Shown here: positions 28,906 through 52,871 of the stretch, piece after piece
How the letters are laid out: every line of letters begins with the position of its first letter
Position numbering within the stretch: the stretch's first letter is position 1
IMG/VR virus record: IMGVR_UViG_3300020050_007300
Coordinates: 9,930-73,929 of that record
DNA length: 64,000 bases
From: a virus
Lineage: Duplodnaviria > Caudoviricetes
Strand: one strand, 5' to 3'
Made by a program: the position numbers and the translations under genes
The notes under the pieces: generated by a model
The model's database searches: none
Told to the model about the DNA's origin: nothing
Seen by the model: only the letters and a program-made list of their open reading frames with translations

Positions 28906-30576
28906 CTACTGTTGGCGTCTAGGTTTGAGCACGGTTAGCATAGGCAGCGCTCCTACATTTACCCACCCACTCGCTGTACCTGCAAGTTTTGTGGCTATGT
29001 AGAAGTAGTGTAGGGCGTGGTGGTAGTGGTCCTCCCCTTTCGTCTTCTCCCACTTATACTTGAAGCCGTCTTTAGTAAGTACACGTACACGTTTCATATC
29101 TCTCAGATGTGAGACAAACTCTTCGTCATCTGGTTGCTTCTTGATAGCGATGTTCAAAGCTTTAAACTCAGCCATCAAGCCGTCAAACGAAATGTCCCGG
29201 TTAATGTTAACTCGTGTTACGTTCAGCTTTCCTTCTTCCGGCTCAGCCTCTGCCCTTGTCACTGTGTAAGTTTCACCAACCTTTCGGTCTACATAAATTG
29301 CACCGTAAGCATTTGGGTCGTAAGTGGTGATTCGGTTAACAAGGTCTGTGTACGGAAACATATCGTGCACTGACACCGTTACGCGAAACTGTTTGCACAA
29401 CTCCTGCCTACGTTCGATGAACTTTGTGTAGTTAATCCTTTCTCTGTGCACTACCAACACTTTACCGTCTGAGGCTATTCTGCCAATGACAACGTGGCAG
29501 GTTAAGCCCATATCAGCACCTAAGAAGTGAACCGTTGACTCTGTGAAGTCAGCATCAACTAGCGACTTTCTTACGTCTGATTCTAGTAACGACTCTTCTC
29601 CGTCTTCCGCAGTCAAGCCCAGGGCTTGGTTGCAGAACTCTGACCACTTGGCAAATGTCGCGCTAGTACGCACCAGATAAGCAGGTGTAATGATACTCGG
29701 CGCACAGAAGGGACTAACGTAGAGAGCCTTCTCGTCGTAGTTATCGCCTGGGTTCTCAAGCACCCAGTTTCGGTACTTCAGGTCAGTTCTGGGCTCTCTG
29801 CCGCAGCAGGGGCACAGCAATTTAGACGCCTGCCAGTCAAGGTCTTTCAGGACCGTCTTGGTAATCTCTTTCTTTGGTCTGTCCCAACCAGGAATTTTTA
29901 CGTCTTTCTCGTAGCTAGGCAGCCACAGGTGGTTGCACTTGTCGCACTTCCACATCTGGCGATAGCGTTTTGCTGTCTCCGCGAGGAGTGAGACCCCGTA
30001 TTTTTCTACTGTGGGGGTGGAGAAAACCCTGCGCATCTTGGTGGGTTTGTGTTGCAACCGACTGACGTAAGTTGCAATATTGTCCATGTCTGACTTGTCG
30101 TATTCGTCGTGAATCAACAAGTCTGCAGGCACTGACAAGCCGCCTGTCTCCGATATAGTCCCCCGCACATAGGCAAAACTGTTCGCACCGAATTGCTTTA
30201 ACGCTACAGTGTTTATGCTCTTGCTCATCATGCGGCGAATCTCAGCACTGTCCGCTATGATTGGGTCGATACGAGTTCGTGTAAAGTTTTCCGCGTCTGT
30301 GCTGGTAGGGAACGTCCACATCAAGGTGAAGTTCTCTTGGGTGCTGACACAGGCAAGTGCCCACCGTGCGAAGATCTCGGAGAGTCCGGTTTGCGCAGCT
30401 TTTACTACGATCAGGTTCTTTTCTAGGTCGCCAATAATGTCTTTTTGGTACTCATGTCCCTTAAAAGAGAACGGCTTTCCCTCGATTTTGGTGTGCTTAA
30501 CAATCCAATCCGCAAGGTTTCCCAGTGTGTAGGTGTTGTTGACCCCGTCTTTCAGGCGCCGAATGTGGTCATGCAT
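28906..30576 (-). CDS. terL: Terminase large subunit (GpA-like ATPase plus RNase H-like nuclease)
   Basis: KAAQTGLSE Walker A variant, LLIHDEYD Walker B, GADMG and DHYHHA nuclease motifs, central Cys pairs. Confidence 0.9.
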   Translation of the reverse strand: MHDHIRRLKDGVNNTYTLGNLADWIVKHTKIEGKPFSFKGHEYQKDIIGDLEKNLIVVKAAQTGLSEIFARWALACVSTQENFTLMWTFPTSTDAENFTRTRIDPIIADSAEIRRMMSKSINTVALKQFGANSFAYVRGTISETGGLSVPADLLIHDEYDKSDMDNIATYVSRLQHKPTKMRRVFSTPTVEKYGVSLLAETAKRYRQMWKCDKCNHLWLPSYEKDVKIPGWDRPKKEITKTVLKDLDWQASKLLCPCCGREPRTDLKYRNWVLENPGDNYDEKALYVSPFCAPSIITPAYLVRTSATFAKWSEFCNQALGLTAEDGEESLLESDVRKSLVDADFTESTVHFLGADMGLTCHVVIGRIASDGKVLVVHRERINYTKFIERRQELCKQFRVTVSVHDMFPYTDLVNRITTYDPNAYGAIYVDRKVGETYTVTRAEAEPEEGKLNVTRVNINRDISFDGLMAEFKALNIAIKKQPDDEEFVSHLRDMKRVRVLTKDGFKYKWEKTKGEDHYHHALHYFYIATKLAGTASGWVNVGALPMLTVLKPRRQQ

Positions 30577-30931
30577 TGCTTAAGGCCTCTTCATAAGCCG
30601 CAAAGAAGGCCTCACTCAGCTCTGGAAATTTCTTCAAAACTGTGATTAGTGTGCCTTCGTAGAGCTTTAAACGCTCTGCGTCATACAGTTCTGTCTGGTT
30701 TTTAGTGATGCTAGTTAGGATACTGTTGATAGTGTTTAACAGTTGAGCCTTTTGGCTTAGCGGTATTTCTTCGTCGTACTCTGTAGCTTCCCTCAGAATC
30801 AAGGCGTTCTTGTACTGAGCCAGCAACTCTCCGTCAAGGTCTAGCTCTGCCAGTTTTGTGGCGTGAACTCTACTTGGTGGAAGCGTGTTCAGCTTTTCTG
30901 TTGGTTTAGGTTCGTCAAAAGAGTCAAACAT
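30569..30931 (-). CDS. Putative terminase small subunit
   Basis: Helical 120 aa protein overlapping the terL start. Confidence 0.55.
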   Translation of the reverse strand: MFDSFDEPKPTEKLNTLPPSRVHATKLAELDLDGELLAQYKNALILREATEYDEEIPLSQKAQLLNTINSILTSITKNQTELYDAERLKLYEGTLITVLKKFPELSEAFFAAYEEALSNA

Positions 30932-31358
30932 GCTTCTCTTTCCTTGCGTAGTTCATGCTGAGTTTGCGCTGCTCTAGCAGGATTTGCTCGTAACCTTCAA
31001 CAAGTTCTGGGTAGCGCTTCTTTGCTTTAGCAAGGTGCCTCCACATGGTGTGGTAGCTGACACAGCACTTCTTTGCTGCACCATCAATGGACAGTCTGCC
31101 TTCAAGGATTTCTTTGGCCACGCTGAGTTTGAAGTCCTTGCGAGCCTCTATCAGAACACCCTTGTCAACTATCGGCTTCTTGCCTGGGAACGCAAAGCTC
31201 AAGTGTTTTTCGTGTACGTCAAGCACCTTGGCAAGTTCCCTGGTCGTGATGTTTCGGTTGTACAGGTCCAGCTTCTGCTGCTCTGTGATACGGCTTTGCA
31301 GTGCGTTGGGCCGTCTGGGGTTGGCCTTGCGCCAGGAGCTGGGGTATTTGTCTGTCAT
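30924..31358 (-). CDS. HTH DNA-binding protein with two HTH-like units
   Basis: ITTRELAKVLDVHEKHLS and LSIDGAAKKCCVSYHTMWR; start moved to ATG 31358. Confidence 0.7.
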   Translation of the reverse strand: MTDKYPSSWRKANPRRPNALQSRITEQQKLDLYNRNITTRELAKVLDVHEKHLSFAFPGKKPIVDKGVLIEARKDFKLSVAKEILEGRLSIDGAAKKCCVSYHTMWRHLAKAKKRYPELVEGYEQILLEQRKLSMNYARKEKHV

Positions 31359-31393: not shown

Positions 31394-31472
31394 TAGTGAC
31401 TGTTGTGTAGTGGCTGTTGAAAGTCAATTTGTGGTGGAAATTTTGAAAATTTTTCCGGAGGGGTAAGGCGCG

Positions 31473-31913
31473 GTATACACTTCTGTATACAAAAGTAGGT
31501 GTACGTCACTTTGTATACAACACCCACCCCTACCCTCACACTGTATACAATCCCACACTGTATACAATCTCCACATACAAAGCAACACCCCTCACCTCTC
31601 GATTGTATACACCAAACCCGACTCTACCTTCAGTGTATACACCATCCCATACACCATCCCATACACCGTCAGTACACAACACCTGAGACTGTATACACAA
31701 CCCGTGCACAACCCGTACACCATCCCCTATAGTGTATACACCATCCACATACACACCTAGCATACCGTATCTCACATTGTATACACAATCTCCGTACCCC
31801 CATCTCACACTGTATACACACCTAGCATACACAACCTAACATCGTATACATAACCCGTACACAATCACACCCAGTGTATACATAACCCGCATACACCCTC
31901 TCACACTGTATAC
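31473..31913. repeat. Array of 14 GTATAC palindromes in a G-poor tract
   Basis: Copies start at 31473, 31485, 31513, 31543, 31560, 31605, 31635, 31691, 31734, 31779, 31812, 31844, 31876 and 31908; a 31-nt direct repeat lies at 31803 and 31899. Confidence 0.95.
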
Positions 31914-32157
31914 ACACCTAGCATACACATGCCCCTACACTTGACATAACTACTGACCTAGGATATTCGCGTGCATGGGCGCGCACCTTGTTAATTAGGC
32001 ATACCCTAGTCCCTACGCTATTACAAATTGTTACAAACTATCCCGGCTTAACTGCCCTTATACCTATATAATCCACTACATGCACCGGGCAACCGGGGCA
32101 TAACGGGTAAGCCTAGCAACTTACCTAAAAATAAATTCTGGTAAGGTTTAAAAACCA

Positions 32158-32166
32158 TGCTAGAAT
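32158..32166 (+). promoter_or_regulatory. Extended -10 promoter (TGc-TAGAAT) facing the early arm
   Basis: Motif match; bracketed by the inverted repeat TTCTGGTA (32136-43) / TACCAGAA (32170-77). Confidence 0.55.
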
Positions 32167-32169
32167 AGA

Positions 32170-32940
32170 TACCAGAACGAAACGATAGGCGTATAACCCG
32201 ATAAGGGAAAACCCCTAGAAGATAGTTCTAAAACCTAGGTTATAATCTAACCTAAGCGAAACGGCCTGATCGTAGGCTGTAGTGGTAATAAAGGGTGGCA
32301 CGGTCCTAGGGAAACCTATCGGATATAGCCTGCTGCCCCGTAAAGCACAACGCGGAAGTTCTTTAAAAATTGACGTGCATAGTAAAAAACAGTGTCGGTT
32401 AACCGCGACACAATGTAATAAAGGTTTGAAGCAACTCGCAAGAGTCTCGGCGTAGAGTGATCTAAAAAAGCATTGTGACAAAGTAGCAAACGCTATTAAT
32501 AGCCCAAAGCGGGCAACATCCCTAGGGTGTTGGATGCACGTTACATATTAAACTTAGGGGACCACTTACGACACACCGTAGGCCCGTGCCCTATTTCCAC
32601 CCCCATGCTGTAAAGTGTTTTCGTTGCTAAACGAGGCATGAGCGCAACCTGAGTGCGCTACAGTAGCGGGGTGGTATGGATGGTAAAAACCATTGCCACT
32701 AGTGCGCAGAATGACTAGTAACGTAACCCTGCCCGACGTTGAATAACGGGCTTAACTATTCAATAGAGGGTATCCCCATTCAAACTTTGATTCATCCGGC
32801 CTAATCCCCGGTCAAACCGTGCCCCTGCACATATGCTGCATCATAGGGGTTTGCCAAAAACCATTGTTTTAATAACGATGTATCGGCACGCACGATAAAT
32901 AAATACGCTTTAACCGCCTCTCTATGGATAGGCGGTTGCG
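32170..32940 (+). ncRNA. Candidate large structured ncRNA or highly structured early leader
   Basis: No plus-strand ORF of 60 aa or more before 32924; more than 12 hairpins, GNRA tetraloops and nested long-range helices found by eye. Confidence 0.5.
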
Positions 32941-32968
32941 TCGTGTTTATTTCACTTTGGAGAAAAAT

Positions 32969-33154
32969 ATGCAATTCATTCGCTGTCAGATTTTGAGCGC
33001 TGCAATCGCTTTAGTGCCCACTTCCATCTTGGCCTATGCGCTTAACGTACAAAGTGTTACGTTAGACTTGTTCGTTATTTTTAGCGTCACAACCACTATT
33101 GCAACAGCCACTATTGCAACGGCTACTTGCTTTATTTTGACCCGCAAAGTCTAA
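32969..33154 (+). CDS. Small 2-TM membrane protein, paralog 1
   Basis: GGAG Shine-Dalgarno; AAIALVPT motif. Confidence 0.7.
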   Translation: MQFIRCQILSAAIALVPTSILAYALNVQSVTLDLFVIFSVTTTIATATIATATCFILTRKV

Positions 33155-33167
33155 CCATAAGGTAACT

Positions 33168-33332
33168 ATGAAAATTGTCGCTTGCCTGATTGCAGCCGCT
33201 GCAATCGCTTTAGTGCCCACTTACGCTCTTGCCCATGCGGCAGACGTAAGCACTCTAACGTTTGGCTTGTTCGTTACTTACAGTGGCGTAACAATCTTTG
33301 TTGCCACCGCAATCGCAGTGCTTACAGAATGA
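33168..33332 (+). CDS. Small 2-TM membrane protein, paralog 2
   Basis: MKIVACLIAAAAIALVPTYALAHAADVSTLTFGLFVTYSGVTIFVATAIAVLTE; shares a 26-nt identical block with paralog 1; not in the ORF track. Confidence 0.7.
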   Translation: MKIVACLIAAAAIALVPTYALAHAADVSTLTFGLFVTYSGVTIFVATAIAVLTE

Positions 33333-33454
33333 AACAAGCCGAAAAGGCGCTGCAAATTCAGCGCACATTAGGAACCCGTGCCGCTGCGGGTTACTTGCGA
33401 AACCGTGGATGGTGCATTACTTATGCACTGCATCTACTAACAAGGGTGAAATGA
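33329..33454 (+). CDS. Small basic early protein
   Basis: ATGA coupling; GTRAAAGYLRNRGW motif recalled from other phage early regions. Confidence 0.65.
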   Translation: MKQAEKALQIQRTLGTRAAAGYLRNRGWCITYALHLLTRVK

Positions 33455-33675
33455 TGTTCACCTTTGAATGCTGGTTGAACCCTGAACACTGTAACCGCAT
33501 AACGGTTACAGCCCTTAATCTGTTTTTAGCTGAACAGATTGTTATAGGCCGGTTTGCGCCTCTATACCTGCAACATTTACCCGATTAGAGCCTACCAAAT
33601 AGCCCCCTAGGCTATTTAGTGCGTTTTGCACTGATACCGCGCCAATATCTAGGCGCAACTTAAGAGGAATCTACC

Positions 33676-34338
33676 ATGAGCAACATCACCAAGTTCGATG
33701 CATCCTGCACCACCATCGCAGTCGCAACCAAGAAAGGCACCACGGAGCGCACCTTGTTGGGCGTGATTATGTCCACCAGCAAGGCCGCTAAACAAGCTGG
33801 CTCCAAGCATCTGGCCGAAAAGTGGTGGAGCAATGGCCAATTTGCACCGTTGGCACGTGAGTGCGCTAACGTGTTTGGTGCGTTGTTCACTGACTTTGTG
33901 ACACACCCTGCTATTGCTATGGACGTTACCACGGGCCGTATTACCAACCCCCATATGACGAACCGCGCAGCATGGGATAGCGTTATCGCGGGCTTGAATG
34001 CCAAAGACCAAGCCCTGAATAAGAAGGGCTTGCCTGCACCATTCAAGGGTGAAAAGCGTATGTTGTTGGACTCTTTGAACCATGCGGTTTTGGTTTTTGA
34101 GATGAATCAGAAACTGGCTGAAGAAGCGGCGGCAAAGCAGTTTGACGACAAAGTGGCCGCAGTGCAGTTTGACGCGGTAGAGGGTACGTCGGCATCCACC
34201 GACGTATCCGGGGCCGTTGTGGGCGGTTTGGATGCCCTTGCCTTGCCCTTGCTGGAAGGCACGGTGCTGGATGCCGCAATCGCGGAGCAGTTTGCCGCCC
34301 TCGAAGCCGCACCAGCCCTCGAAGAAGCCCCGTTCTAA
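33676..34338 (+). CDS. Hypothetical early protein with an acidic C-terminus
   Basis: GAGGA Shine-Dalgarno; 220 aa; biased codons. Confidence 0.8.
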   Translation: MSNITKFDASCTTIAVATKKGTTERTLLGVIMSTSKAAKQAGSKHLAEKWWSNGQFAPLARECANVFGALFTDFVTHPAIAMDVTTGRITNPHMTNRAAWDSVIAGLNAKDQALNKKGLPAPFKGEKRMLLDSLNHAVLVFEMNQKLAEEAAAKQFDDKVAAVQFDAVEGTSASTDVSGAVVGGLDALALPLLEGTVLDAAIAEQFAALEAAPALEEAPF

Positions 34339-34950
34339 TGCTGCACCCCGCCTTGATTAGCAAGGTTTGTTTGATGGCGGTATCGGCAACGATAGATGCC
34401 ATCAACCCCTACACCCCCATTTACTATGCACGCCACAATCTGCAATGGTTTTGTGATGTGCGCTTAGAGTGGATAAAAATATGACTGCCTCTGGGGAATT
34501 TTCTTACGTGTGTTTCTTCTATACAGTGGAAGGTTTTCGCACCTTTACATATAGAAACCATCGTACAAATGGCAAGGGTACTGTTTTGCCCTTGCATTAT
34601 GGCGGCGGTAATGCGGACTTTAACAAGGTCTTTGTTTGTACTTCCTTGTTGCGAAAGGTTTGAGGTATGCCTTAAATAAACCTAAACCTCTAGTTGTTAG
34701 GCGGGTATTCTACCTTTGGTGTGGCGAGCCATTAACGCATAAGTAAAGCCTTAAACCTCGATCTCTACGGGTGAAATACCGCCGGATAAACGTAACCGGC
34801 ATCAATTGGAGTTTCAAATGAAACCATGCCACCCAGCCGTCGCCGCTGCAATTGCTGAATACCGTCAGGCTTTGTTGATGGTCCGGCAAGGTTTGCTAGG
34901 CAATGCCCAAATTTCCCGTGACAAAGTTCGTTTGCTGCATAGGCTAATCC

Positions 34951-35190
34951 ATGTTCACCATTGACTCTTACGTGAGCGCAGTTATCGCTCACTCTAAAAC
35001 AAAGACTTGGTGGAACTGCACCGTGGAAGTTTCGCACGGCGGAAAAATCCATACCGTAGGCTGCAAAGCTTTCGGTTTGTGGGTTCAAAGAGTCGAATGC
35101 AACGGCATTCGCTCAGACGTTCCTGAATGCAAAACGCAAAGGGCTTTTCGAGAGGCGTTTGTTCGCGAACTTGAAAAGATTTTGCGGTGA
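34951..35190 (+). CDS. Hypothetical protein
   Basis: 79 aa ORF on the early strand. Confidence 0.55.
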   Translation: MFTIDSYVSAVIAHSKTKTWWNCTVEVSHGGKIHTVGCKAFGLWVQRVECNGIRSDVPECKTQRAFREAFVRELEKILR

Positions 35191-35491
35191 TTAACTTTAC
35201 ATATTGTTACAATTTTCAGCTTTTAATGGCCAAATTTGTGCATTTTGTGACATACAAAGGAAAATGACTATCTAAGGACGGTCATTTTGTCCTCAAATAT
35301 TGTGATTTTTGTAAATTTTCGTATTTTTAAGGATGGTTATTTGTGACTGACTATCTAATTCTGACTATTTCTGCCTCTTGTATTTGCGCTGAGATTTGTG
35401 CTCAGGATGAAAATCGACTATTTACCAGCGTTTGTTTCGCTCGCCTTGGAAATACTTACAGCTTGTCAGCCTGTTTCTTCGGAGAAAATTT

Positions 35492-35926
35492 ATGGAAAAT
35501 AGTTTGAGCAGCGCTTACTTATCCATAGCTAAAGCGCTTAAAGATACGTCTGCAAGTCCAAAGACTTGTCAAGCTGTTTACTCTTGTCTTGCAACCTATA
35601 ACAAGTCTTTAAGCCAGCAAGATTTTCTTGCGGCTTGTGGGTTTTCACCAGCAAGGCTGTTTGTAATTGCCTACGTTAACTGGTTAGATTCTGGTGCCGA
35701 AGAAGGCAAGCCTTTTTCTCGCAGGTTTGGATTGTGTGGAAATTCTGACCTGCCGTTGTTTGACCTATTCGACGGCTTGCATCCTTTAGTACCGTTTAAT
35801 TCGGATGAGAATTTAGTACCACTTGAGAAAACCCATCCGGAATACTTGTTTTCTGAGTTTAAAGAAGCAAGAGCCCATTTAAACCCACGGAGAATTGCTT
35901 GGGCAAGGTCTTTTGCGGGCTTTTGA
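35492..35926 (+). CDS. Hypothetical protein
   Basis: GGAG Shine-Dalgarno before ATG 35492. Confidence 0.6.
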   Translation: MENSLSSAYLSIAKALKDTSASPKTCQAVYSCLATYNKSLSQQDFLAACGFSPARLFVIAYVNWLDSGAEEGKPFSRRFGLCGNSDLPLFDLFDGLHPLVPFNSDENLVPLEKTHPEYLFSEFKEARAHLNPRRIAWARSFAGF

Positions 35927-36388
35927 GCCGTTTTTTGCTTTACCGCAGGCTTCGTATTGGCAAGGTTTAAGAAGCGCGCTATCAAGCGTTTTGATGCCTC
36001 GCCTCTGCCTTGTCAGCCTTCTTTGCGGTCTGCTTCCTCAAGGTCTAAGAATTCCCTGGGTCAAGTTCCCAGAAACCTAAACCTAAACCATAAGTAGTAC
36101 AAATAAGTAGTTTAGTCCTCGATTTTGTGGTTTTTAACCCCCCCCCAGGGGGATTTTTGCTTTTTTCGACTTTTTGGAATTTTCATTTTTCATTTTTCAC
36201 TTCTTATGGCACCACACTTGAAAACCTCAACTCCTAAACCTTTTTCAAAAAGAGGTTTAGTTTAGATTTTTCTCCTTTACACGGCTTCCCCACACTTGAC
36301 AAGCCTTTTCGCAACAAACACGGCAACAAGCACTGCAATTCAACCAAAATACAACACCAAAAAGAGACTTGACTATCTACCAACGTAG

Positions 36389-36434
36389 AAACTATTCAAA
36401 TATTTAGTGAAATATCTAAATATTTGAATAGTTT
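36389..36434. repeat. Perfect 19-bp AT-rich inverted repeat
   Basis: AAACTATTCAAATATTTAG-tgaaatat-CTAAATATTTGAATAGTTT. Confidence 0.9.
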
Positions 36435-36804
36435 AGAATATGTCAGCAGCAACCGTCTAAGAAAATTCAAAATTAGCAAAGTAGCCCATTTTCTAGCTAC
36501 TGAAATAGAAATAGATGTTTGATGATTTTTTACCTGTCCAAATCGGGACTTAACAGCGTAGAAAAAATTCTAATATGTCCTCACAAACGACGAAATTTTT
36601 GACCAAACAAGTGGGGTTTTACGCAAAACCCCACAAAAACCCAGAGATAGTGACAAATTGAGCAGACCTGCCAGTGTTAGCCTGTAAACGTAAATTACCG
36701 TGCAAAAACGGAACACCGGAAAAATGCCTCGTTTACTTGAGAAGTTTTGCAAAAGAAACGTTTCGGGTGTAAAATTCCAGCTCCTTAAACTCCGGACTAC
36801 TCCC

Positions 36805-37533
36805 ATGACTTCCACCAGCTACCTTGCGCTACCCTCCAACGAGATAGTCACCGCGCACTTTGAAACTTCACTTGTGCGTGCTTACAGAGACCCTGATACC
36901 ACCCGAGAAAATTCCTTTTGTTTCGTGCTGAGCGACATTTGCGAAATACTGGGGCTGGCGAATCCACGACAAGCCTTGACAACAGTGCAGGAACGTGGAC
37001 GGGTAAAGCTGCTTATTGACACCAGTAAAGGCGTTCGGGAGGTAAACGGGCTGAACATGGGGGGATTCTTTGAACTTGTTACCAAATCCCGCACAGAGAA
37101 AGCTAACAGGTTCAAAGACTTTGTTAACTACACCCTACTGTGGAAAATCGCCGATCAAGGTCACTGGAGCCACAGCCCTAAAGTGCTTCTTAAATTTCGG
37201 AGAAACCACAACAAACTGCTAGACAGCATGGCAAGGGAGCTTAAATCCTCTTACCTTATGTACGAAGAGCAGGTAGAAAACAGACGTGAGGACTACAAAG
37301 GGGTAGACCTGCAACAAGCTGCGGCAGGCCTCGTAACCGACGCATACAGACTTGCAATGCACCTTCAAGAGGAAGAGCGTAACGAATACGTAGAGCTGCT
37401 GGGAGACCTGGCATACTGTGTAATAACTGAGAAACCCCGAGAACTCAACCCTAGTCACTACCCAATACGGCTAATAAAGCCCGACGTTTACGTCATGAAC
37501 CCTAAACTTCAGATAGTAAATGAGCTACGTTAA
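36805..37533 (+). CDS. Bro-N domain (antirepressor-like) protein
   Basis: FVLSDICEILGLANPRQAL and GFFELVTKSRTEKANRFKDFV are typical BRO-N motifs. Confidence 0.85.
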   Translation: MTSTSYLALPSNEIVTAHFETSLVRAYRDPDTTRENSFCFVLSDICEILGLANPRQALTTVQERGRVKLLIDTSKGVREVNGLNMGGFFELVTKSRTEKANRFKDFVNYTLLWKIADQGHWSHSPKVLLKFRRNHNKLLDSMARELKSSYLMYEEQVENRREDYKGVDLQQAAAGLVTDAYRLAMHLQEEERNEYVELLGDLAYCVITEKPRELNPSHYPIRLIKPDVYVMNPKLQIVNELR

Positions 37534-38257
37534 AGTGAGTAAACACACAGGCCGTATATGCGGCACATGGGTTGTCCAAGGACTTGGGGACCGCAGGACG
37601 CTGGGGGGTGGGGCGTACCTACTTGTGGCCTGCCGAAAATGCGGCCACAAGGCTGAGAGGGAGGCGCAGCAGATGCTCAAGCGCCCCCCAAAGTGCCCAA
37701 TCTGCAAGCAAAACGTCGTCGTAGAGGTTGCCAAACCTCCAGCGCTACGACGAATGGTCATCACACTTGGCGAGCGGCCACTGCAAATTGTGGAAAACCT
37801 TGAGTTTGACGATTGGGTGAAGATAACCCTTGTCTCTAGGTTAGCCTACCTCGAAAGGGCAGGCGCCAAAGTCTACCTTGGCAACACAGTAGACGGGCTC
37901 TCTATAGAGCCTATGGTAAATCCCTGGGAGCGGGCCAAGTTAGTCAGAGTCTTTGCTAAAGGTCAAGAAGTTGCACCAGAGATGGCCCTAACACCTCTGC
38001 CACCACCGACAAGCAATGAACCTGACCGCCCTTTCCTGAAAATTAAGGAAGAGGACCAAGGGGTTTTTACTGACGATGGCAAGAGAATGCCTCAGTACAT
38101 TGCACAGTGGGCGGAAACAATCCCAGACCTTGGCGAGATGACCTTTAACTTCCAGTTTGCGGAAACTGGTTACCTTTATGTAACCTGGGACCGCCCGGAA
38201 CCGCGAAGACTTGTCGAGATACCAGACTTCGACATACCCCTCCAACTAGCGGATTAA
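37520..38257 (+). CDS. Zn-ribbon protein whose N-terminus resembles homing-endonuclease DNA-binding domains
   Basis: GRICGTWVV...ACRKCG...CPIC. Confidence 0.6.
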   Translation: MSYVKVSKHTGRICGTWVVQGLGDRRTLGGGAYLLVACRKCGHKAEREAQQMLKRPPKCPICKQNVVVEVAKPPALRRMVITLGERPLQIVENLEFDDWVKITLVSRLAYLERAGAKVYLGNTVDGLSIEPMVNPWERAKLVRVFAKGQEVAPEMALTPLPPPTSNEPDRPFLKIKEEDQGVFTDDGKRMPQYIAQWAETIPDLGEMTFNFQFAETGYLYVTWDRPEPRRLVEIPDFDIPLQLAD

Positions 38258-38259
38258 CT

Positions 38260-38613
38260 ATGCGCCACAAAGAAAACGCCCAAGCCGCACTTGAATTCAT
38301 TCAAGACCTGCCTGAAAAGTACATAGACCTGGAAGATTACACAACCGAGGTCATCGAAGGAGACGGAACAAAGACCGTAGCGCACTGCCTTGGCGGTTGG
38401 CTGCCTCACATAGGCCACTTCAAAGAGCTTGGCGTGGTTGCATCTAGCGGGGGTTATCCGTTACTGCACACCGGCCCAGTCACAAGAGACCTATTTGGCA
38501 GTCACCCAGTGTTTTACTACGGTAAATGGCGGGAGTTTATGGAAGACTTCCCAGAGACTGCCACGGACAAAGAAGAAGTAATTCAACGCTTGTTGTGGGT
38601 TATTAACCAATGA
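38260..38613 (+). CDS. Hypothetical protein
   Basis: AHCLGGW motif; operon coupling. Confidence 0.7.
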   Translation: MRHKENAQAALEFIQDLPEKYIDLEDYTTEVIEGDGTKTVAHCLGGWLPHIGHFKELGVVASSGGYPLLHTGPVTRDLFGSHPVFYYGKWREFMEDFPETATDKEEVIQRLLWVINQ

Positions 38614-38972
38614 AAACTCCATTTTCTGATCTGGTAGGCCATACGCTCACCAGCATCACACACGAAAAAGAACACGCTTTGAGGTTTCGAGGCGAGTCAC
38701 TGGTCTTTCAGTCCAAAACTGCTAAATGGACTCAGAACTTCCACGCGGACGAAAACGACCTTGACATTTACATTGAGTCCATCGTAGGTGACTTCAAAGA
38801 CCTGCTCGAAACACCAATCTTGGTGGCGGAAGAGTGCACAGGTTCCTGCGAAGAAGGGACCTACACCTTCTACAAACTTGCTACGGTGAGGGGTTGGGTG
38901 GATATTCGTTGGGTTGGAGAATCCAACGGTTACTACAGCGAAACGATGGAAACCTACAAGGAGACCAAATGA
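38610..38972 (+). CDS. DUF7448-like protein, copy 1
   Basis: FYKLATVRGWVDIRWVGESNGYYSE. Confidence 0.7.
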   Translation: MKTPFSDLVGHTLTSITHEKEHALRFRGESLVFQSKTAKWTQNFHADENDLDIYIESIVGDFKDLLETPILVAEECTGSCEEGTYTFYKLATVRGWVDIRWVGESNGYYSETMETYKETK

Positions 38973-39337
38973 AGACACTGCAACAAATCTTTGACCAAGC
39001 CTACAACGGCATCCTTGCCCAAGGTGGGCAGTCCAGCGACACAGTAGGGCGCTGCATGTACCGTGGGCCAGGAGGGCGAAAGTGTGCGGTAGGACACTTG
39101 CTACCTGATGCACTGTACCACCGCAGCATGGAAGGCCAGGCAGTTGACTATTCTACAAGGGTACTTGGCTCCGCCCTGCTTCAAGCAGGAATTGACATGG
39201 AGGACAGACCTACGAAAAACCTTGTTATCCGTATGCAAGCCATACATGACGACATTTACGGAGGAAACTTCCTTGAGGAATTCAAGTCCTCGATGCGGGC
39301 TCTTGCAATAGAGAACAACTTGGAGGTTCCCCAATGA
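38969..39337 (+). CDS. Conserved phage hypothetical protein
   Basis: CMYRGPGGRKCAVGHLLPD; ATGA start at 38969. Confidence 0.75.
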   Translation: MKTLQQIFDQAYNGILAQGGQSSDTVGRCMYRGPGGRKCAVGHLLPDALYHRSMEGQAVDYSTRVLGSALLQAGIDMEDRPTKNLVIRMQAIHDDIYGGNFLEEFKSSMRALAIENNLEVPQ

Positions 39338-39912
39338 CACCCTTCAACACTGTCTACCACCGAGACAAAGCTTACAAACGTTACGGCTTGCGGTGGTGCG
39401 ACGCAGAAAAAGACCACCTCAAAGAGCTGTACCTATCTGGTGCGACTATCGACACCATCTGTAACAAGCTAGAACGCGCTCCAGAAGGCGTTACAGCGCG
39501 GCTACTTGCCCAGGGCTTGATAGTTAAAGTGGACGGACTTCACTTCCGTACTGATTCCGAACCTACAAAGGAACACATGAGCATCGAGTTAACCTCTTTT
39601 GGTCGCAGAGACCCCACAACCCTCAGCTCTTCCACGCTAGTGGAAAGCGCCTTCTGCGTAGACCCCCGACCCAACTTCATGCAACATTTCAAAGGACCAT
39701 CCAAAATGGAAAACATCAAGAACATCACACTGATCGACGGCCAAGACGCAGCAAACCTCAAAGACGATGCAATTTTCAAGAAAATTGCAGTGCTTGAAAA
39801 AGAAGTTGCAGTCTGGAAGACCATCGAAAACAAGCCCAAAAAGCTGCAACTTGCTATCGACAAGCTGCAGGAAGACATTAAAGCCCTTGTGGCTTATGTA
39901 GATGCACGGTGA
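39334..39912 (+). CDS. HTH-containing protein with a C-terminal coiled coil
   Basis: WCDAEKDHLKELYLSGATIDTICNKLERAPEGVTARL. Confidence 0.65.
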   Translation: MTPFNTVYHRDKAYKRYGLRWCDAEKDHLKELYLSGATIDTICNKLERAPEGVTARLLAQGLIVKVDGLHFRTDSEPTKEHMSIELTSFGRRDPTTLSSSTLVESAFCVDPRPNFMQHFKGPSKMENIKNITLIDGQDAANLKDDAIFKKIAVLEKEVAVWKTIENKPKKLQLAIDKLQEDIKALVAYVDAR

Positions 39913-40260
39913 TGTGGGACTTCATGGCAGGTTTCATCGCAGGCTCTGTACTGCTTGCAGTGCTGGCCATCTTGGTAGCTAACAGTGAAGGTTAGTATGG
40001 AAGAATACCTAATAGGCTTCGGGACAGGAGTTGCCCTGTCTGTTGGAGCTTTCGTTCTGGTCCTCCTGCTTGATAGCTAAATGGACTTATTCATTTTTGT
40101 CGCACTGCTGCTAAGTTACCACTGGCCCGAACCAGTAACTAAGGTAGCTCTTCCAGCAGTGCGGCGGGCAGCTTGCCCGTCAGGCCGAGAGCGATGTTGG
40201 TGCGGGCTAGTGGGGTACTCGGGTGCCCTACATCCCGCCCAAAAGTTGCTAACAGGTTAA
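39912..40260 (+). CDS. Three tandem tiny membrane ORFs (39912..39995, 39997..40080, 40081..40260)
   Basis: 27, 27 and 59 aa; abutting starts and stops; not in the ORF track. Confidence 0.55.
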
Positions 40261-40346
40261 CAGCCTGTTAGCTTTAAACCCCAAAGAACCTGCTAAGACC
40301 AGGTTCTTTGTTTAAGCGACACCGTTTAAACAAAGAAGGAGAAACC

Positions 40347-40610
40347 ATGATTCACAAACTTGAACTCAAAGTTGGCTGGGCTACCGTACCTAAGAGCTGG
40401 AAACCGCTCAGCGTGCAGCTGCAAGAGGGCTTCCCTATGTTGTGGTACTCCTTTAACGGAGAAGATACGATGACCATCTACATCGAAGAAGGCTGGACAG
40501 GTTGGTCGACACCTAAAGGTATTTATATGGGGACTACAGTGATCGAGGGCCTTGTCTCTCACTGGTACTACCAGGAAGAACTTGTCTTACCGCAGTTGCC
40601 TTTGTTGTAG
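40347..40610 (+). CDS. Hypothetical protein
   Basis: AAGGAG Shine-Dalgarno before ATG 40347. Confidence 0.7.
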   Translation: MIHKLELKVGWATVPKSWKPLSVQLQEGFPMLWYSFNGEDTMTIYIEEGWTGWSTPKGIYMGTTVIEGLVSHWYYQEELVLPQLPLL

Positions 40611-40619
40611 GGGCCTGTT

Positions 40620-41039
40620 ATGTCAACTAACTCACAAATCATCACCAGACTCACAGACGGCTCTTATCGTGGCGTTTATTGCCATTTCGATGGGCATCCT
40701 GCAGGGGTAGGAGCAGAGCTGTTGAAGCACTACAACTCCCAAGAACAAGCAGAACGCGTCACTTCCTTGGGGGCACTAAGTGAGCTAGGCGCTTCTATGG
40801 AGTGCCCGGAAGGGCATTCCTACAGTAAGCCTGTCAAGGGTTACACCGTTGCGTTTCACCGGGACAGAGGGGAAGAATTGCTTTTCGCAGAAGCTGAAAC
40901 TCTGCAAGGTTGTTTAGACGCTCAGCCTTTTGGTGGGGCAGAGTATTTCTATGTCTGGGAAGGCTCGTGGCGCACAATGGCAGAGTCGGACTTGATTGCA
41001 CTGGGCATGGAGTCTGCTATGGGTGAAGGTTACCTATGA
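40620..41039 (+). CDS. Conserved phage protein of the YCHxDG family
   Basis: GVYCHFDGHPAGVGAELLKHY. Confidence 0.75.
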   Translation: MSTNSQIITRLTDGSYRGVYCHFDGHPAGVGAELLKHYNSQEQAERVTSLGALSELGASMECPEGHSYSKPVKGYTVAFHRDRGEELLFAEAETLQGCLDAQPFGGAEYFYVWEGSWRTMAESDLIALGMESAMGEGYL

Positions 41040-41191
41040 CCTCGGAAGACGACGTAATCATCTGGCCCTGCAGCACTTGGTGCTACAGAACAGACTTGCC
41101 TGAGTACAGTCACAAGTCTGACGACTATCAGGTTCTGAAAACAGATTCCAGGGAGTGGCAGGTGTTCCTGGAACTCGTAGGAGAGCACTAA
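41036..41191 (+). CDS. Small conserved phage protein (51 aa)
   Basis: WPCSTWCYRTDLPEYSHKSDDY; ATGA coupling; not in the ORF track. Confidence 0.6.
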   Translation: MTSEDDVIIWPCSTWCYRTDLPEYSHKSDDYQVLKTDSREWQVFLELVGEH

Positions 41192-41192
41192 T

Positions 41193-41516
41193 ATGAAAGC
41201 CTCAGAAGTTTACTTAGCTGCTGCCGAGATTGTAGAAGAGAGCTACTACGGAGCTTGTTACGCTATTTCCGTAGCTCACCGAGGGGTCACACCTTTTCCG
41301 GTGCGATCGGCGATGGCCAAAGCAAACATAAAACACTTTGAAGAAGTGTTTGACCACTCACGAGGAGAGTTCGCCTACTTCATGGGTCCGACACGCTGGC
41401 ACACGGGAGACCCTCTTGAGGCAGAAGTGATAGAAGAAGCTTACCAGCGAAGGGTGTACGCCCTTCTTTTAATGGCAGAAATTGCAAAGGATGAAGAATG
41501 CGACTCCCAGGTCTAA
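41193..41516 (+). CDS. Hypothetical protein, DUF6197-like N-terminus
   Basis: KASEVYLAAAEIVE...GACYAI. Confidence 0.6.
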   Translation: MKASEVYLAAAEIVEESYYGACYAISVAHRGVTPFPVRSAMAKANIKHFEEVFDHSRGEFAYFMGPTRWHTGDPLEAEVIEEAYQRRVYALLLMAEIAKDEECDSQV

Positions 41517-41935
41517 TAATCGACGACTGCCACTACGCTGGCATCGCTACTGATGGCAAGCGCCACTGGCATTTGCTTGTCCCTATGCACCAAGACTTGC
41601 CAAAGATGGTGTGGGGCGAATACGGCCAAGATGTTCCTGATGCACAAAGCCGCTTCGACGGCCTCGCCAACACCTTGGCTATGGCCGAAGCTGGCAGCAA
41701 ACTGGCCCAGCTTATTCGCACAAAGGGTGATTGCTACCTGCCTAGCCAAGCAGAAATCACTCTTTGCGCAGCGACCATACCGCACGCATTTAAAGACGGA
41801 TACCACTGGACCAGCACGCAGCTCTCCCGCCACGACGCGTTTGTGCAGGACTTTGAGAACGGCGGCAGCTATTGGGACCTCAAGGACGACGAGTTCCGTG
41901 CCGTCGCCGTCCGTCGCATCATGATTGGAGAATGA
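41498..41935 (+). CDS. DUF1566 / Lcl-domain protein
   Basis: CYLPSQAEI, YHWTSTQ and AFVQDFENG...FRAVAVRR. Confidence 0.75.
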   Translation: MRLPGLIIDDCHYAGIATDGKRHWHLLVPMHQDLPKMVWGEYGQDVPDAQSRFDGLANTLAMAEAGSKLAQLIRTKGDCYLPSQAEITLCAATIPHAFKDGYHWTSTQLSRHDAFVQDFENGGSYWDLKDDEFRAVAVRRIMIGE

Positions 41936-42321
41936 CTATGGACGAACATACAAAGAGCCTGCTGCAAGCGTTGATTGACGACAAGCAGTTGGAGAGCGTT
42001 GATAACGACGGCAAGTGGAAGACTGTCGTGGACTTCCCCTTCACTGCTCTTTACCTCTTTTGTCACGATAAGTTGCGCGTCAAACAACCCACCATTCGCA
42101 TTGGCGAAGTGGATGTGCCTGAACCCTTGCGGGTAGCACCTGCGAAGGGCACGGAGTATTGGGTCGCCAATACTATAGACGAGAGGTTCTACTCCCCTAT
42201 GTCATGGTCCAACCACGGCATTGACCGCCTGCTGCTCAGCAGGGACCTTGTCCACACGAGCCAAGAAGCTGCCGTTGCTCACGCCAAAGCGCTGATTGCA
42301 GTTAGTGGGGGTACGGTATGA
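41932..42321 (+). CDS. Hypothetical protein, paralog of 42952..43365
   Basis: PEPLRVAPAKGTEYW versus PGPCVEAPEPGKIYW. Confidence 0.65.
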   Translation: MTMDEHTKSLLQALIDDKQLESVDNDGKWKTVVDFPFTALYLFCHDKLRVKQPTIRIGEVDVPEPLRVAPAKGTEYWVANTIDERFYSPMSWSNHGIDRLLLSRDLVHTSQEAAVAHAKALIAVSGGTV

Positions 42322-42638
42322 ACCACGTAACCGTACTTCAAGACGCTAAACAGGTTCTTGTGGGCGCAGGAAACCGATCAATCGGCAGTTACGCTACGGA
42401 TAAGAATGGCTTTAGCGTTGCGGTAAATAGCCCTACGGCTGTGTGCTTTTGCGCTATTGGGGCAGTTCGACGTGTGACCAAGGGGTTAACGTACTCCGTA
42501 GTGACGAACCAAGTGATGCCGATTTTAAGAAACAACATGGGCGGGAATATCGTTAAATTCAACGACAACAGCACTTACGAAGAAGTGCTAGCAGCCTTCG
42601 ACGTAGCGATTAAGGAGGCGCAAGAATGTCTGACGTAG
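42318..42638 (+). CDS. DUF6197-like protein, tandem copy 1
   Basis: AVCFCAIGAV...FND.STYEEVLAAFDVAI. Confidence 0.7.
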   Translation: MNHVTVLQDAKQVLVGAGNRSIGSYATDKNGFSVAVNSPTAVCFCAIGAVRRVTKGLTYSVVTNQVMPILRNNMGGNIVKFNDNSTYEEVLAAFDVAIKEAQECLT

Positions 42639-42955
42639 CAAGTGTTTTGAAAGCAGCTAAAGAGCTGATTTCGGATGAGAGCAGGCACGACAAAGGATTC
42701 CTTGCTAGGGATAAAGAAGGGTTCCTTTGCCACCCTAACAGCAAAGATGCCCACTGCTTTTGCTCTCTGGGAGCGGTGTGCCATGTGGCTGGAAAAACCG
42801 CCAAGACTACTGGGGGCTACGATCACCTCAAAAAAGAGTCGCTTTTGATTTTGCGTAAGCACATGAGTGGGAGTGTTACAGAGTTTAATGACACCAAAAC
42901 CCACGCAGAAGTCCTCGCCGCGTTTGATGCTGCTATCGAAGAGAGTTCAAAATGA
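42626..42955 (+). CDS. DUF6197-like protein, tandem copy 2
   Basis: AHCFCSLGAV...FNDTKTHAEVLAAFDAAI. Confidence 0.7.
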   Translation: MSDVASVLKAAKELISDESRHDKGFLARDKEGFLCHPNSKDAHCFCSLGAVCHVAGKTAKTTGGYDHLKKESLLILRKHMSGSVTEFNDTKTHAEVLAAFDAAIEESSK

Positions 42956-43365
42956 AAGAAGCAACCAAAGTCTTCATGCAAGCACTGCTTGCCGGTGAAA
43001 CGTTGGAGTACCAGGACTGGACAACGGGTATTTGGCTTGCTGCCGAAGAGCCTCTGGCTATCTTGCAGGCCTGGGAAGAAAATGACACTACTCCAATTCG
43101 TGTAGCGCCGAGAACGATCACCATAGGAGGCAAAAAACTGCCAGGGCCATGCGTAGAAGCCCCGGAGCCAGGAAAAATCTACTGGTACATCACACTAAGA
43201 CACCCCCACCAAGCCGAAACTTCCAAGTGGGAGAACCACGTTGTAGACAGAGGCTACCTCCAAAGCGGCAACGTGTTTAAAACACGAGAAGACGCAGAAG
43301 CTGTAGCAGAACACCTTGTTTCCCTCCTTACCCAAAACCACCCCAAAACAGAAAGTACCAAATGA
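42952..43365 (+). CDS. Hypothetical protein, paralog of 41932..42321
   Basis: Shared motifs as noted for the paralog. Confidence 0.65.
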   Translation: MKEATKVFMQALLAGETLEYQDWTTGIWLAAEEPLAILQAWEENDTTPIRVAPRTITIGGKKLPGPCVEAPEPGKIYWYITLRHPHQAETSKWENHVVDRGYLQSGNVFKTREDAEAVAEHLVSLLTQNHPKTESTK

Positions 43366-43775
43366 AAAACGCCCTCCTCGTTCTCGCAGTCACCGCCACC
43401 CTTGCCGCTTGTGGCAAAGACCAACCTGTCAGCTTTGACACCCTGGAAACCAGTCGCAGCACAGCAAAATCCAATGCGGAGTACAACGCTCAGAAGTACC
43501 GTGCAGAGTCTCCGCAGTTTGCAAACTTTGCACTGGAAGTCCAGGGTGATTCCACCCAGTCCCCAACCTGCCCACAAGGTGACGGCTGGGCAAGTGCCAA
43601 GCTGGTAGACAAAGCAAACCCCTTGGTCAAATCGGCACTGAAGTGTTCCACCGTCTCCAGCAGCGTTGGCTGTATGACGGCTGACGATTTCCAGAAAAAG
43701 CCCTACGCTACCGATGATGGCTCTTGCCAGCCGGTTACCAAGGTGCCCTTCCCGCTGCCCAAGGTGGCAAAATGA
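43362..43775 (+). CDS. Lipoprotein
   Basis: Signal peptide with lipobox LAAC; CPQGDGWAS motif; several Cys. Confidence 0.8.
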   Translation: MKNALLVLAVTATLAACGKDQPVSFDTLETSRSTAKSNAEYNAQKYRAESPQFANFALEVQGDSTQSPTCPQGDGWASAKLVDKANPLVKSALKCSTVSSSVGCMTADDFQKKPYATDDGSCQPVTKVPFPLPKVAK

Positions 43776-44068
43776 GCCACGAGCAGGCACGACAAGGCTT
43801 TGAGAAGTGGTACAGCGGAGCATTCTCGGTTTCCGAAAAAGAGCTGCTCAACAACAGAGACGGAAATGACTACCGCAACGACCAACTTGACGCTGCCTGG
43901 GGAGCTTGGCAAGCAGCGCTGAGTGCCAAACACCTGCCGCTTGCCACGAATGCCTGGATTGTCCAACACGAAGACCCTAAAGCCTTTTGCACAGTGGCTG
44001 CGTTTAAGACTGAGGAAGAAGCGTTACAGGTGCTAAGTGCTGTAACACCTGCAACCCTCTTTCACTGA
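43772..44068 (+). CDS. Hypothetical protein
   Basis: ATGA start; FEKWY...AAWGAWQAA motif. Confidence 0.65.
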   Translation: MSHEQARQGFEKWYSGAFSVSEKELLNNRDGNDYRNDQLDAAWGAWQAALSAKHLPLATNAWIVQHEDPKAFCTVAAFKTEEEALQVLSAVTPATLFH

Positions 44069-44135
44069 CAGCAGACGGCTTAGGCCGTTTGTTTACCTTA
44101 GCCTTAGAGGGCTAAGGTAAACAACAGGAGAATAC

Positions 44136-44522
44136 ATGGTATATGCTACGAAAAGCTTTTCTTCCCTGGTTGGAGAGACCCTTACAGGTGTCGAAGGGTT
44201 GTCTTACGGGTCGGATAAAGTTACCTTTACCAGCCTGTCAGGCCGGACTTTTCAGCTGCATCACATACAAGATTGTTGTGAATGCGTAAGCGTTGAAGAT
44301 GTTACAGGGGACAGCAAAGACTTGTTAGGCTCACCAATTCTGGTGGCTGAAGAGGTTTCAGACGCACCCAGACCCGAGGGTCACAAATACGCCCCCGCTG
44401 AGTCAGAGACCTGGACGTTCTACAAACTTGCCACTGTAAAGGGTTGGGTAGACATTCGTTGGTGGGGCGTGTCTAACGGTTACTACAGTGAACGAGTTGA
44501 TTTTGTAGAGGTGTTGCCATGA
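44136..44522 (+). CDS. DUF7448-like protein, copy 2
   Basis: HIQDCCECV...FYKLATVKGWVDIRWWGVSNGYYSE. Confidence 0.75.
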   Translation: MVYATKSFSSLVGETLTGVEGLSYGSDKVTFTSLSGRTFQLHHIQDCCECVSVEDVTGDSKDLLGSPILVAEEVSDAPRPEGHKYAPAESETWTFYKLATVKGWVDIRWWGVSNGYYSERVDFVEVLP

Positions 44523-45625
44523 ACTACCCAGACACGGCTATCTACACATCTCTTTACCAGTTGTCAGGTAACGTCAAGGACATTAACAGAGTTGTCATTA
44601 CTGTGGAGGAGTTGCGTGCCCTGTTAGACAAAGATCGAGCTGAACAAGCTACCAATGCCAACCCTTGCTCCAAGGCCCACGGTGCGGTGGAGCTGGGTTT
44701 TGCCTCAAAACCGGAAGTAACTCCAACAAAGGAAGACCTTAAACAGTTGCACTCGTTTTTCTTTCAGATTATTCACGGAGATCTTCTGGCAGATAACCCG
44801 AAAGACCTGTCAGAGGCGCTCAAGGCAAGTGCAACTGCTCACACATTAATAGCAACCTTCTCTTCGCCAGAGGTAACGCGCTATCGTTGGCTTAGAGGTG
44901 AGGCAGAGCGCGACTATGTTGAGTTTGGCGACGCGTGGCATGAGTCAGCCGAGGATCTGGACGCAGCAATTGACAGAGCTATTGCCGCCGCCCCCACTAC
45001 TTCAAAGGAAGCACTGTGAGCGAAGCCGAATTACTTGCACTTATAGGCGAGTTGGCTCCAGAGAGCCCTATGAATCAAGATGAAATGGGTGGCTGTGTGC
45101 ATTGCAAGGGTGGTCCGCCTGGAGAGCGCTATGGCTATGCCGACCGCTATCTATCGGACCATGGAGAAAATTGCGTTTGGGTGAAAGCCCGTGTTGCATT
45201 GGGCGATCAGCTCCCCGCCGCCCGAATGGACCTAAAGGATTGACATGACTTCAGAACGACTAGAAGCGCACCGGGTGCGGTTTGAGCAGAGATACCGTGA
45301 ACTGAACGGTAAAGGGTTGCAGCTAAATCGCTTTCAGGCAGGGAGCTACAAGGCCCCGCAAGTGGAACTGGCGTGGCAAGCCTACCAATGGGCACTAGCT
45401 GACGCTACCCAGTCACACCAACAGAGTGTGCAGCCGGTAGCAGATTCCGACCTGGAGAAGTTAGCTACTAATTTGGAACTCTATTCCGATTATGAAAAGG
45501 GCCGGAGCCAAGCGGACTTCCTAGACCCGGTTTTGTTTGGACGGGCCGCGATTGCTCTCTACGCAGCCGTGCAGCCAGTAGAGGTGCAGCCTGTGGCATA
45601 TGCGTTGAAGTGGCCGCATGGTTAA
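44519..45625 (+). CDS. Three hypothetical ORFs (44519..45019, 45016..45243, 45245..45625)
   Basis: Coupled starts and stops on the early strand. Confidence 0.6.
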
Positions 45626-45653
45626 ATGGTGCCGGGTTTACACAGGAGCCTTT

Positions 45654-46279: not shown

Positions 46280-46374
46280 CCAGGACACTTAAGCAAGTCT
46301 CCGGGCTTGCTTAAGCGACTGATAACCGCTTAATTTCGTAGCAACGGCTACATAACCCTTGATAGGAATCCATC

Positions 46375-47022: not shown

Positions 47023-47095
47023 GCAAGTTAAGCGGGTAAACTTCTAAGTGCGGTTTCATACCCACTATCCGCTCCACCATAACTAAAGGTGTGAG

Positions 47096-47813: not shown

Positions 47814-47818
47814 GTTTA

Positions 47819-47893: not shown

Positions 47894-47898
47894 ATACC

Positions 47899-47973: not shown

Positions 47974-47976
47974 AAC

Positions 47977-52864: not shown

Positions 52865-52871
52865 ACCATTT

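Follow-up and report, generated by a model that had tools for sequence, protein, structure and literature searches.

Modular, strand-specific RNA structure ahead of the early genes of a phage, probably a new class of large leader or non-coding RNA

The DNA analysed here, a 64-kb stretch (the window) out of the 73.9-kb IMG/VR virus record IMGVR_UViG_3300020050_007300, comes from an uncultivated phage and contains a gene-free region whose most likely product is a folded non-coding RNA, about 870 bases long, with no match to a described family. The secondary structure of this region (32080-32952) is conserved, specific to the plus strand, non-coding and modular, and physically the region forms the leader of the early operon. 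Structural genes run leftward and early genes rightward, with the first ATG at 32969; 1.6 kb separates the two arms, and 31430-32968 carries no credible open reading frame (ORF). Judging from its sequence in very few lineages, the element is probably a large phage RNA of a new class, either a leader or a non-coding RNA. An earlier reading of the same DNA (the original prediction) had placed a large, ornate RNA at 32170-32940, behind an extended -10 promoter. A conserved plus-strand structure of RNA type is indeed present, but nothing points to a single co-folded ornate unit like GOLLD or ROOL, and the findings agree with modules that follow one another and fold separately.

Relatives of the region and absence of coding

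The region is common to only three other lineages, and the clade is small and fast-evolving. The first relative, L033 (IMG sample 3300020045), is a 99% twin whose differences from the window are confined to a palindrome array left of the RNA (single-nucleotide polymorphisms and an indel of 5 nucleotides (nt)) and to position 32088; it is otherwise identical across the RNA. The second, phage B, comes as two contigs: L002, whose terminase is 90% identical, aligns to 31907-32560 at 74%, and L047 matches 32685-32966 at 90-94%. Because L002:1-121 and L047:1-121 overlap by 121 perfect bases and both contigs come from the same sample, they belong to one phage; the break in the B assembly sits where B turns 94% identical to the window phage. 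The third, L034, is a more distant, partial homologue (the adjoining helix-turn-helix (HTH) protein is 67% identical) whose contig ends about 460 nt into the RNA. In a fourth lineage, represented by a 9,896-nt Logan contig from run SRR20217178 with a terminase 82% identical, an ORF-free gap of 1,563 nt lies in the same place; more distant relatives (terminase identity 53-64%) are without the motifs and mostly without a large gap.

A blastn search (word 11) with 31400-33000 and the corresponding cassette of phage B gave no match among 50,697 phage records, and five DNA or protein scans of viral contigs returned phage B's own contigs or chance matches only. The terminase scan of viral contigs found 15 loci, only L002 being alignable in the region, and the scan with the TerS-like protein of L034 returned loci without the region. 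The three matches of a metagenome scan were all due to chance, as was the single match in a scan of 185,579 prokaryote genomes, to a metagenome-assembled genome of Saccharimonadales without homology.

Each plus-strand frame of 32080-32952 holds 20-27 stops. No long plus-strand frame appears there when TGA, TAG or TAA is read as sense, and a micro-ORF comparison found no ORF of the region in common with phage B. With both approaches empty, hidden coding was rejected, and the claim that the region is free of ORFs holds under any reading of the stop codons.

Conserved fold on the plus strand

To score folding, RNAalifold consensus energies of window/B alignments were compared with those of 100 column-shuffled alignments on both strands (Table 1). 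The plus-strand signal is continuous over 32076-32556. Within 32170-32556, 17 compensatory pairs were found versus 6.0 in the null, and none of the 100 null alignments reached 17. Among eight coding controls of similar divergence, seven gave z values between -2.2 and +2.6, and none rose above the null in compensatory pairs; the eighth (33436-33826) gave -5.7 and -6.0 on the two strands and includes intergenic hairpins. These are an A-tract/hairpin/U-tract at 33597-33617 and a second hairpin preceding the ORF at 33676, and they are probably intergenic terminators.

Table 1. Consensus folding energy of window/B alignments relative to shuffled alignments
Positions	z, plus strand	z, minus strand
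32076-32170	-6.7	-0.8
32170-32292	-4.4	-1.3
32290-32362	-3.4	+0.5
32362-32556	-5.1	-2.5
32170-32556	-6.1	-0.7
32685-32945	-4.4	-3.4
31941-32075	-0.9	-0.2

The consensus for 32076-32560 (alignment A6) comprises 105 pairs, of which 19 have both partners changed and 14 have one partner changed; moving the partner by 1-3 columns left only 0-3 changed pairs. G-U pairs, which cannot pair on the minus strand, account for 29 of the 210 pair cells, and unpaired positions are A-rich (51% A in the window, 45% in B), as is usual for folded RNAs. For the multibranch domain described below, the three-sequence consensus energy corresponds to z -6.0 on the plus strand and about -1.9 on the minus strand. Over 32076-32556, pairs are thus kept by compensatory change beyond shuffles and the opposite strand. 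Further downstream, 32560-32684 has no homologous sequence for a pairing test, and over 32685-32945 this test is weak, with few changes and both strands scoring.

Folded as a single sequence, the plus strand of 32170-32940 (771 nt) has a minimum free energy (MFE) of -245 kcal/mol, with z values of -4.9 (20 shuffles) and -4.5 (60 shuffles); the minus strand gives -1.3. Twelve sense-strand 771-nt windows of coding sequence from the same phage average -1.8 (sd 1.4), with two of them at -3.9 and -4.3. The region is therefore more stable than shuffles, but the single-sequence case is only suggestive, because coding windows of the same phage reach -4.3. Local 200-nt z scores are conspicuous only at 32050-32300.

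Modules of the predicted RNA

From 5' to 3', the RNA would consist of a near-invariant stretch of five to six hairpins, a local hairpin domain, a multibranch domain of 170 nt, a cassette open to exchange and a conserved final section, which a strong U-tract hairpin closes off just ahead of the ribosome-binding site of whichever gene is first (Table 2). All four long-range helices and twelve hairpins of the original prediction are complementary in the sequence, GCAA and GAAA loops included, and they differ in how far the relatives retain them.

Table 2. Features of the candidate RNA and its surroundings
Feature	Positions	Strand	Remarks
Palindrome array, about 14 copies of TGTATACA	31480-31930	.	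Flanking context, outside the RNA; adjoins HTH gene
Candidate -10, TATAAT	32067-32072	+	Conserved in B; predicted RNA start near 32079; no good -35
Candidate structured RNA or leader, whole	32080-32952	+	About 870 nt in window, about 1,060 nt in phage B; predicted ends
Hairpin CCGG-GCAA-CCGG with flanking pairs	32081-32100	+	B: GUAA loop, G-U pair
Hairpin UUCUGGUAA / UGCUAGAAU, includes TGCTAGAAT	32135-32166	+	94% of cells paired, three lineages
Helix AGAAC/GUUCU around small hairpins (CCC-GAUAA-GGG and neighbours)	32174-32229	+	Near-invariant, window versus B
Hairpin UAGGUUA-UAAUC-UAACCUA	32236-32254	+	A-U to G-U in B, pairing on plus strand only
AUCG-loop hairpin, loop invariant	32261-32280	+	Stems GGCC/GGCU in window, AACC/GGUU in B, GCGC/GCGC in L034
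Local hairpin domain	32294-32339	+	Outer helix 32294-32301/32332-32339 kept in B
Multibranch domain, about 170 nt	32371-32543	+	Closed by 10-bp helix 32371-32380/32534-32543
Variable cassette	32560-32684	+	B and L046: about 330 nt, mostly unrelated; L034: third version
Conserved 3' module	32685-32896	+	94% identical to B; z -4.4 on plus, -3.4 on minus
Candidate extended -10, TGTTTTAAT	32866-32874	+	Within 3' module
Terminator-like hairpin, 5' A-tract, 3' U-tract	32897-32952	+	-24.8 kcal/mol, z -6.0
GGAG ribosome-binding site and ATG (32969), first early ORF	32960-32971	+	16 nt past hairpin

In the 5' part, one pair of the hairpin at 32135-32166 appears as G-C, A-U and G-U across the lineages. 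The AUCG-loop hairpin has 96% of its cells paired and four of its eight pairs changed on both sides, a level equalled in 6-9 of 500 shuffles. The helix at 32174-32229 shows no variation and hence gives no covariation evidence. Consistent or compensatory changes bear out three of the hairpins first proposed from the sequence, at 32236-32254, 32434-32445 and 32698-32719.

The local hairpin domain (M2a) contains five compensatory pairs versus 2.0 in the null and scores z -3.4 on the plus strand and +0.5 on the minus strand; in B a different hairpin takes the place of its inner GAAA hairpin (32307-32318). The long-range helix 32297-32307/32580-32590, which in the original prediction enclosed much of the structure, is not kept in B, where the local outer helix is kept instead. 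A switch between alternative pairings had also been proposed: both GGCACGGT (32297) and its alternative partner ACCGTGCC (32816) are present, and their pairing is not kept in B.

The multibranch domain recurs when the window, B and L034 are folded separately by MFE, each giving the same layout of a 150-170-nt multibranch domain closed by a long-range helix. This closing helix, one of those originally proposed, is kept with compensatory changes in both B and L034, for example as AUGUAU/AUACAU in L034 versus GUGCAU/AUGCAC. Inside it, three adjacent pairs of the helix 32409-32415/32471-32477 show compensatory change in B, and the loop of the GCAA hairpin at 32434-32445 is kept; most of the other small hairpins are replaced by different ones between lineages. 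Comparison of the window with B revealed no conserved long-range pairing beyond this domain, and the global MFE model, in which the ends pair across 600 nt, was rejected since it is not conserved in B. On the minus strand, a hairpin GTGTCG/CGACAC at 32392-32411 is followed by T6 and resembles a terminator; B keeps the hairpin and a weaker T-run, and it might stop antisense transcription towards the packaging genes.

The cassette holds the second multibranch domain of the original prediction (32597-32674), which is lost in B together with the sequence around it, where about 330 unrelated nt are found; a single stem, AGCGCA/UGCGCU, is shared between the cassettes of the window and B. Contig L046, from another sample, joins a B-type cassette to a window-type 3' module and early genes, so the cassette has been exchanged by recombination, with AAAAACCATTG marking its border. 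L046:1-1290 is also an inverted chimera, in which positions 1-972 match window 32685-33660 in reverse and positions 1258-1909 match 33511-34162 in the forward direction; this may be either an assembly artefact or a real inversion. The motif AAAAACCAT has only three exact copies in the window, at 32150, 32685 and 32856 on the plus strand, all inside the RNA region and one of them marking the recombination border of the cassette; a variant with one mismatch lies at 32465.

The 3' module includes the hairpins 32698-32719, with U-A changed to C-G in B, and 32731-32751. B maintains the identity of the module up to the ribosome-binding site, and the first gene behind it is unrelated to that of the window.

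Ends of the RNA

We infer the promoter, both ends of the RNA and its function. The fold signal begins near 32080, about 90 nt upstream of the start chosen in the original prediction. The extended -10 promoter named there, TGCTAGAAT at 32158-32166, turned out to form the 3' side of a hairpin that three lineages conserve. Because it pairs with TTCTGGTAA in all of them, TGCTAGAAT more probably belongs to the RNA than serves as its promoter, although it could act as a promoter as well. The best candidate promoter, by sequence, is the TATAAT at 32067-32072.

At the other end, the version of the terminal hairpin in B has -23.4 kcal/mol and a z of -4.3, and a scan of the region upstream of this hairpin found no plus-strand terminator-like site. 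With 16 nt from the hairpin to the first ORF, a promoter would not fit into the gap. Across the early arm, terminator-like sites do not exceed the number expected by chance, and terminators were therefore rejected as evidence of antitermination.

Proposed function and alternative explanations

Taken as a whole, the findings are best explained by a cis-acting folded early leader whose terminal hairpin gates the early genes, an explanation that we give about an even chance. The host polymerase would start at or just upstream of 32080 once the DNA has entered the cell. A large share of the transcript would stop at, or be trimmed to, the hairpin at 32897-32952 and accumulate as a discrete RNA, and the early genes would be reached by read-through only. 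Acting in cis, the leader would set transcription past the hairpin through attenuation or antitermination, and its folds could shield the long untranslated RNA from Rho and RNases.

Several observations weigh against this reading. Single-sequence z values fall within the tail of the coding background and were rejected as proof. The global MFE structure is poorly conserved, with 39 of 90 changed pairs kept on the plus strand and 27 of 91 on the minus strand. No promoter of the region passes a consensus promoter scan, the TATAAT at 32067 included, and sigma-70-type matches over 32000-48000 are scarcer than in shuffles (5 vs 12.0, sd 3.4). The number of compensatory pairs found with three sequences aligned over the multibranch domain (12 vs 9.7 in shuffles) was rejected as proof; because shuffles give nearly as many, the support from three sequences rests on energy and strand asymmetry. 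The 3' module scores almost equally on the minus strand. Informative lineages number only two or three, too few for R-scape-type statistics, and recent recombination among phages of one sample, and not constraint, may explain why identity is so high in the 5' and 3' modules.

The main rival is a stand-alone, abundant early RNA that ends at 32897-32952 and acts in trans, as a scaffold, sponge or decoy directed at a host factor or defence; its cassette would be the part that meets a target specific to the host, with read-through into the early genes no more than a side effect. We regard it as possible, if rather unlikely. Such an RNA would suit the strong and conserved terminator-like 3' hairpin, the length of about 0.9-1.1 kb with much folding and A-rich linkers, and the exchange of the cassette between lineages while the flanks are conserved; it also has precedents in non-coding RNAs of about 0.6-1.2 kb from ORF-less gaps of ICP1 (PMC7567579) and phage K (PMC9241854). 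However, complementarity to the rest of the phage genome is at chance level only, for which reason antisense targets there were rejected, and no repeated protein-binding motif is conspicuous besides the three copies of AAAAACCAT. Furthermore, because the early ORFs have no clear promoter past the hairpin, the RNA must also serve as their leader, which counts against action in trans.

A more specific version of trans action depends on the order of DNA entry. The lambda-type terminase and the palindrome array by the HTH gene suggest a packaging site just left of the RNA gene. With the packaging direction of lambda as the model for which DNA end enters first, the RNA gene would lie on the first-entering end if packaging is lambda-like. 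That a new class of modular RNA of about 0.9-1.1 kb, made from the first-entering DNA, serves RNA-only takeover or anti-defence in trans while phage proteins are still absent, its conserved 5' and 3' scaffolds displaying a central cassette that co-occurring phages swap to suit different host targets, is a doubtful proposal that takes the position of the RNA gene from this analogy.

Alternatively, there may be no single large RNA, and the region may be an ordinary early control region with several promoters, short leader hairpins, processing sites, terminators and short transcripts, each conserved helix then being a small element of its own. Its modular build and replaceable middle are in line with this, as are the three -10-like motifs (32067, 32158, 32866), the three AAAAACCAT copies at module borders, the lack of conserved long-range pairing beyond the 170-nt domain and the unremarkable local 200-nt z scores over much of 32300-32900. 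On the other hand, the plus-strand signal is unbroken from 32076 to 32556, the multibranch domain requires at least 170 nt of one transcript, TGCTAGAAT lies within a conserved hairpin and no internal plus-strand terminator-like site was found, which makes a set of short transcripts improbable.

It is very unlikely that the pairing reflects inverted repeats at the DNA level and no functional RNA, be they operators, packaging (cos/pac) sites or single-stranded DNA structures, with apparent covariation arising when both copies of a protein-binding motif change together. A motif in both orientations can mimic compensatory change, a palindrome array and a lambda gpA-type terminase module adjoin the region, and the 3' module folds about equally on either strand. 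Yet folding over 32076-32556 is strongly asymmetric (z -6 on the plus strand, about -0.7 on the minus strand), and the G-U pairs would be C-A mismatches on the other strand. The unpaired positions are A-rich, and covariation involves numerous short helices that differ in sequence from one another, unlike one binding motif.

The least probable alternative, with hardly any weight in our estimate, is a replication-origin primer or R-loop transcript like ColE1 RNA II (the ColE1-type primer RNA being a transcript that ends at the origin and has an antisense regulator) or the T4 oriF/oriG transcripts: a long folded untranslated transcript does lie next to an iteron-like array, but the palindromes sit beside packaging and not replication genes, neither an antisense-RNA promoter nor a G-rich/C-rich hybrid-forming pair was seen, and the role is unlikely because an AT-rich trough (41-42% G+C) and the lowest point of cumulative GC skew are located around 35-40 kb, some 3-7 kb rightward of the region.

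To our knowledge, large folded phage RNAs are among the least understood gene products, and we know of none with a proven function. The present candidate has testable features in its fixed place ahead of the early genes, its clear modular anatomy and the natural swap of cassettes and first genes. If the cis-acting leader controls read-through at the terminal hairpin, the immediate-early step of infection would have an RNA-only switch of unusual size; should the RNA work in trans instead, it would be a candidate for an RNA-based factor of host takeover or anti-defence. For now, the narrow distribution over three or four metagenomic lineages limits the value of the candidate.

Known RNA families and comparable systems

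The original prediction had raised the possibility of a new family. In agreement with it, cmscan with Rfam 15 over the whole window found only tRNAs at gathering score, over 31400-33200 at E values up to 10 it found one chance miRNA match, and in the relatives L002, L034 and L047 it found nothing relevant at E up to 1; there was no match to GOLLD, ROOL, OLE, HEARO, raiA or any other family. ARAGORN detected no tRNA or tRNA-like part in 31400-33200, and of the tRNA genes closest to the region (47819-47970 and 52785-52944) the nearest is 15 kb away.

By position, the candidate is compatible with a processive antitermination leader of the HK022 put type. The put RNAs of HK022, two stem-loops of about 70 nt behind an early promoter, bring about antitermination past downstream terminators, and the early leaders of T7 and T3 carry RNase III hairpins. 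Like HK022 putL and putR and the T7/T3 leaders, the candidate is folded RNA that would come immediately after an early promoter, with a terminator-like hairpin and then the first early genes following it in the same orientation; the likeness to put is one of position only, and the candidate leader is more than 10 times longer.

GOLLD and ROOL are large ornate RNAs of bacteria and phages, with structures from cryo-electron microscopy (PMC12286853). The candidate shares with them the size class of several hundred nt, the many helices and the occurrence in phage genomes, and the function of both is unknown. Unlike them, it has no Rfam match, is not beside tRNA genes, has a replaceable middle and no conserved long-range architecture, and occurs in few lineages.

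Closer in setting, the lytic phage ICP1 makes an abundant non-coding RNA of about 800 nt from a 1-kb ORF-less gap (PMC7567579), and phage K makes the abundant lnc001 (635 nt) and lnc002 (1,154 nt), one of which has its own early promoter (PMC9241854); all three are known from RNA-seq only. The candidate resembles them in its location, a gap of about 1 kb free of ORFs within a genome of virulent type, in its length and in having no known function. Those RNAs are expressed and have no published conserved fold, whereas the candidate is known by its comparative fold alone; it also differs in lying directly ahead of the first early ORF, and blastn found no sequence similarity to them.

Sequences flanking the RNA

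To the left, the structural arm ends with the large terminase (28906-30576, lambda gpA-type, PF05876), a 120-aa ORF and the HTH protein (30924-31358), which is small-terminase-like in that it occupies the usual small-terminase position. The last five TGTATACA palindromes are spaced 32 nt apart, and the DNA of the array is G-poor and lies upstream of the HTH gene and the gpA-type terminase; it may be a cosB- or pac-like binding array. In L034 a second repeat array at 700-950, on the minus strand of the locus, sits between the palindromes and the RNA, with units such as CCTTGYCGGGTTC and GCCCAGGC. It is annotated in the source as an 88-aa gene, an ORF to which nothing in the window is related.

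The block at 31941-32000, which lies between the palindromes and the candidate promoter, contains a perfect TTGACA and the G+C-rich CGCGTGCATGGGCGCGCAC and gives no sign of an RNA fold (z -0.9). Phage B conserves the block, and L034 has a recognisable version of it in the form of a perfect inverted repeat, GCGTGCA/TGCACGC. Its role could be that of a promoter, an operator or a cohesive-end site.

To the right, the first two early ORFs of the window had no match to a Pfam or PHROG family, and phage B carries unrelated genes in their place. These ORFs (32969-33154 and 33168-33332; 61 and 54 aa) encode paralogous small hydrophobic proteins with the common motif AAAIALVPT.

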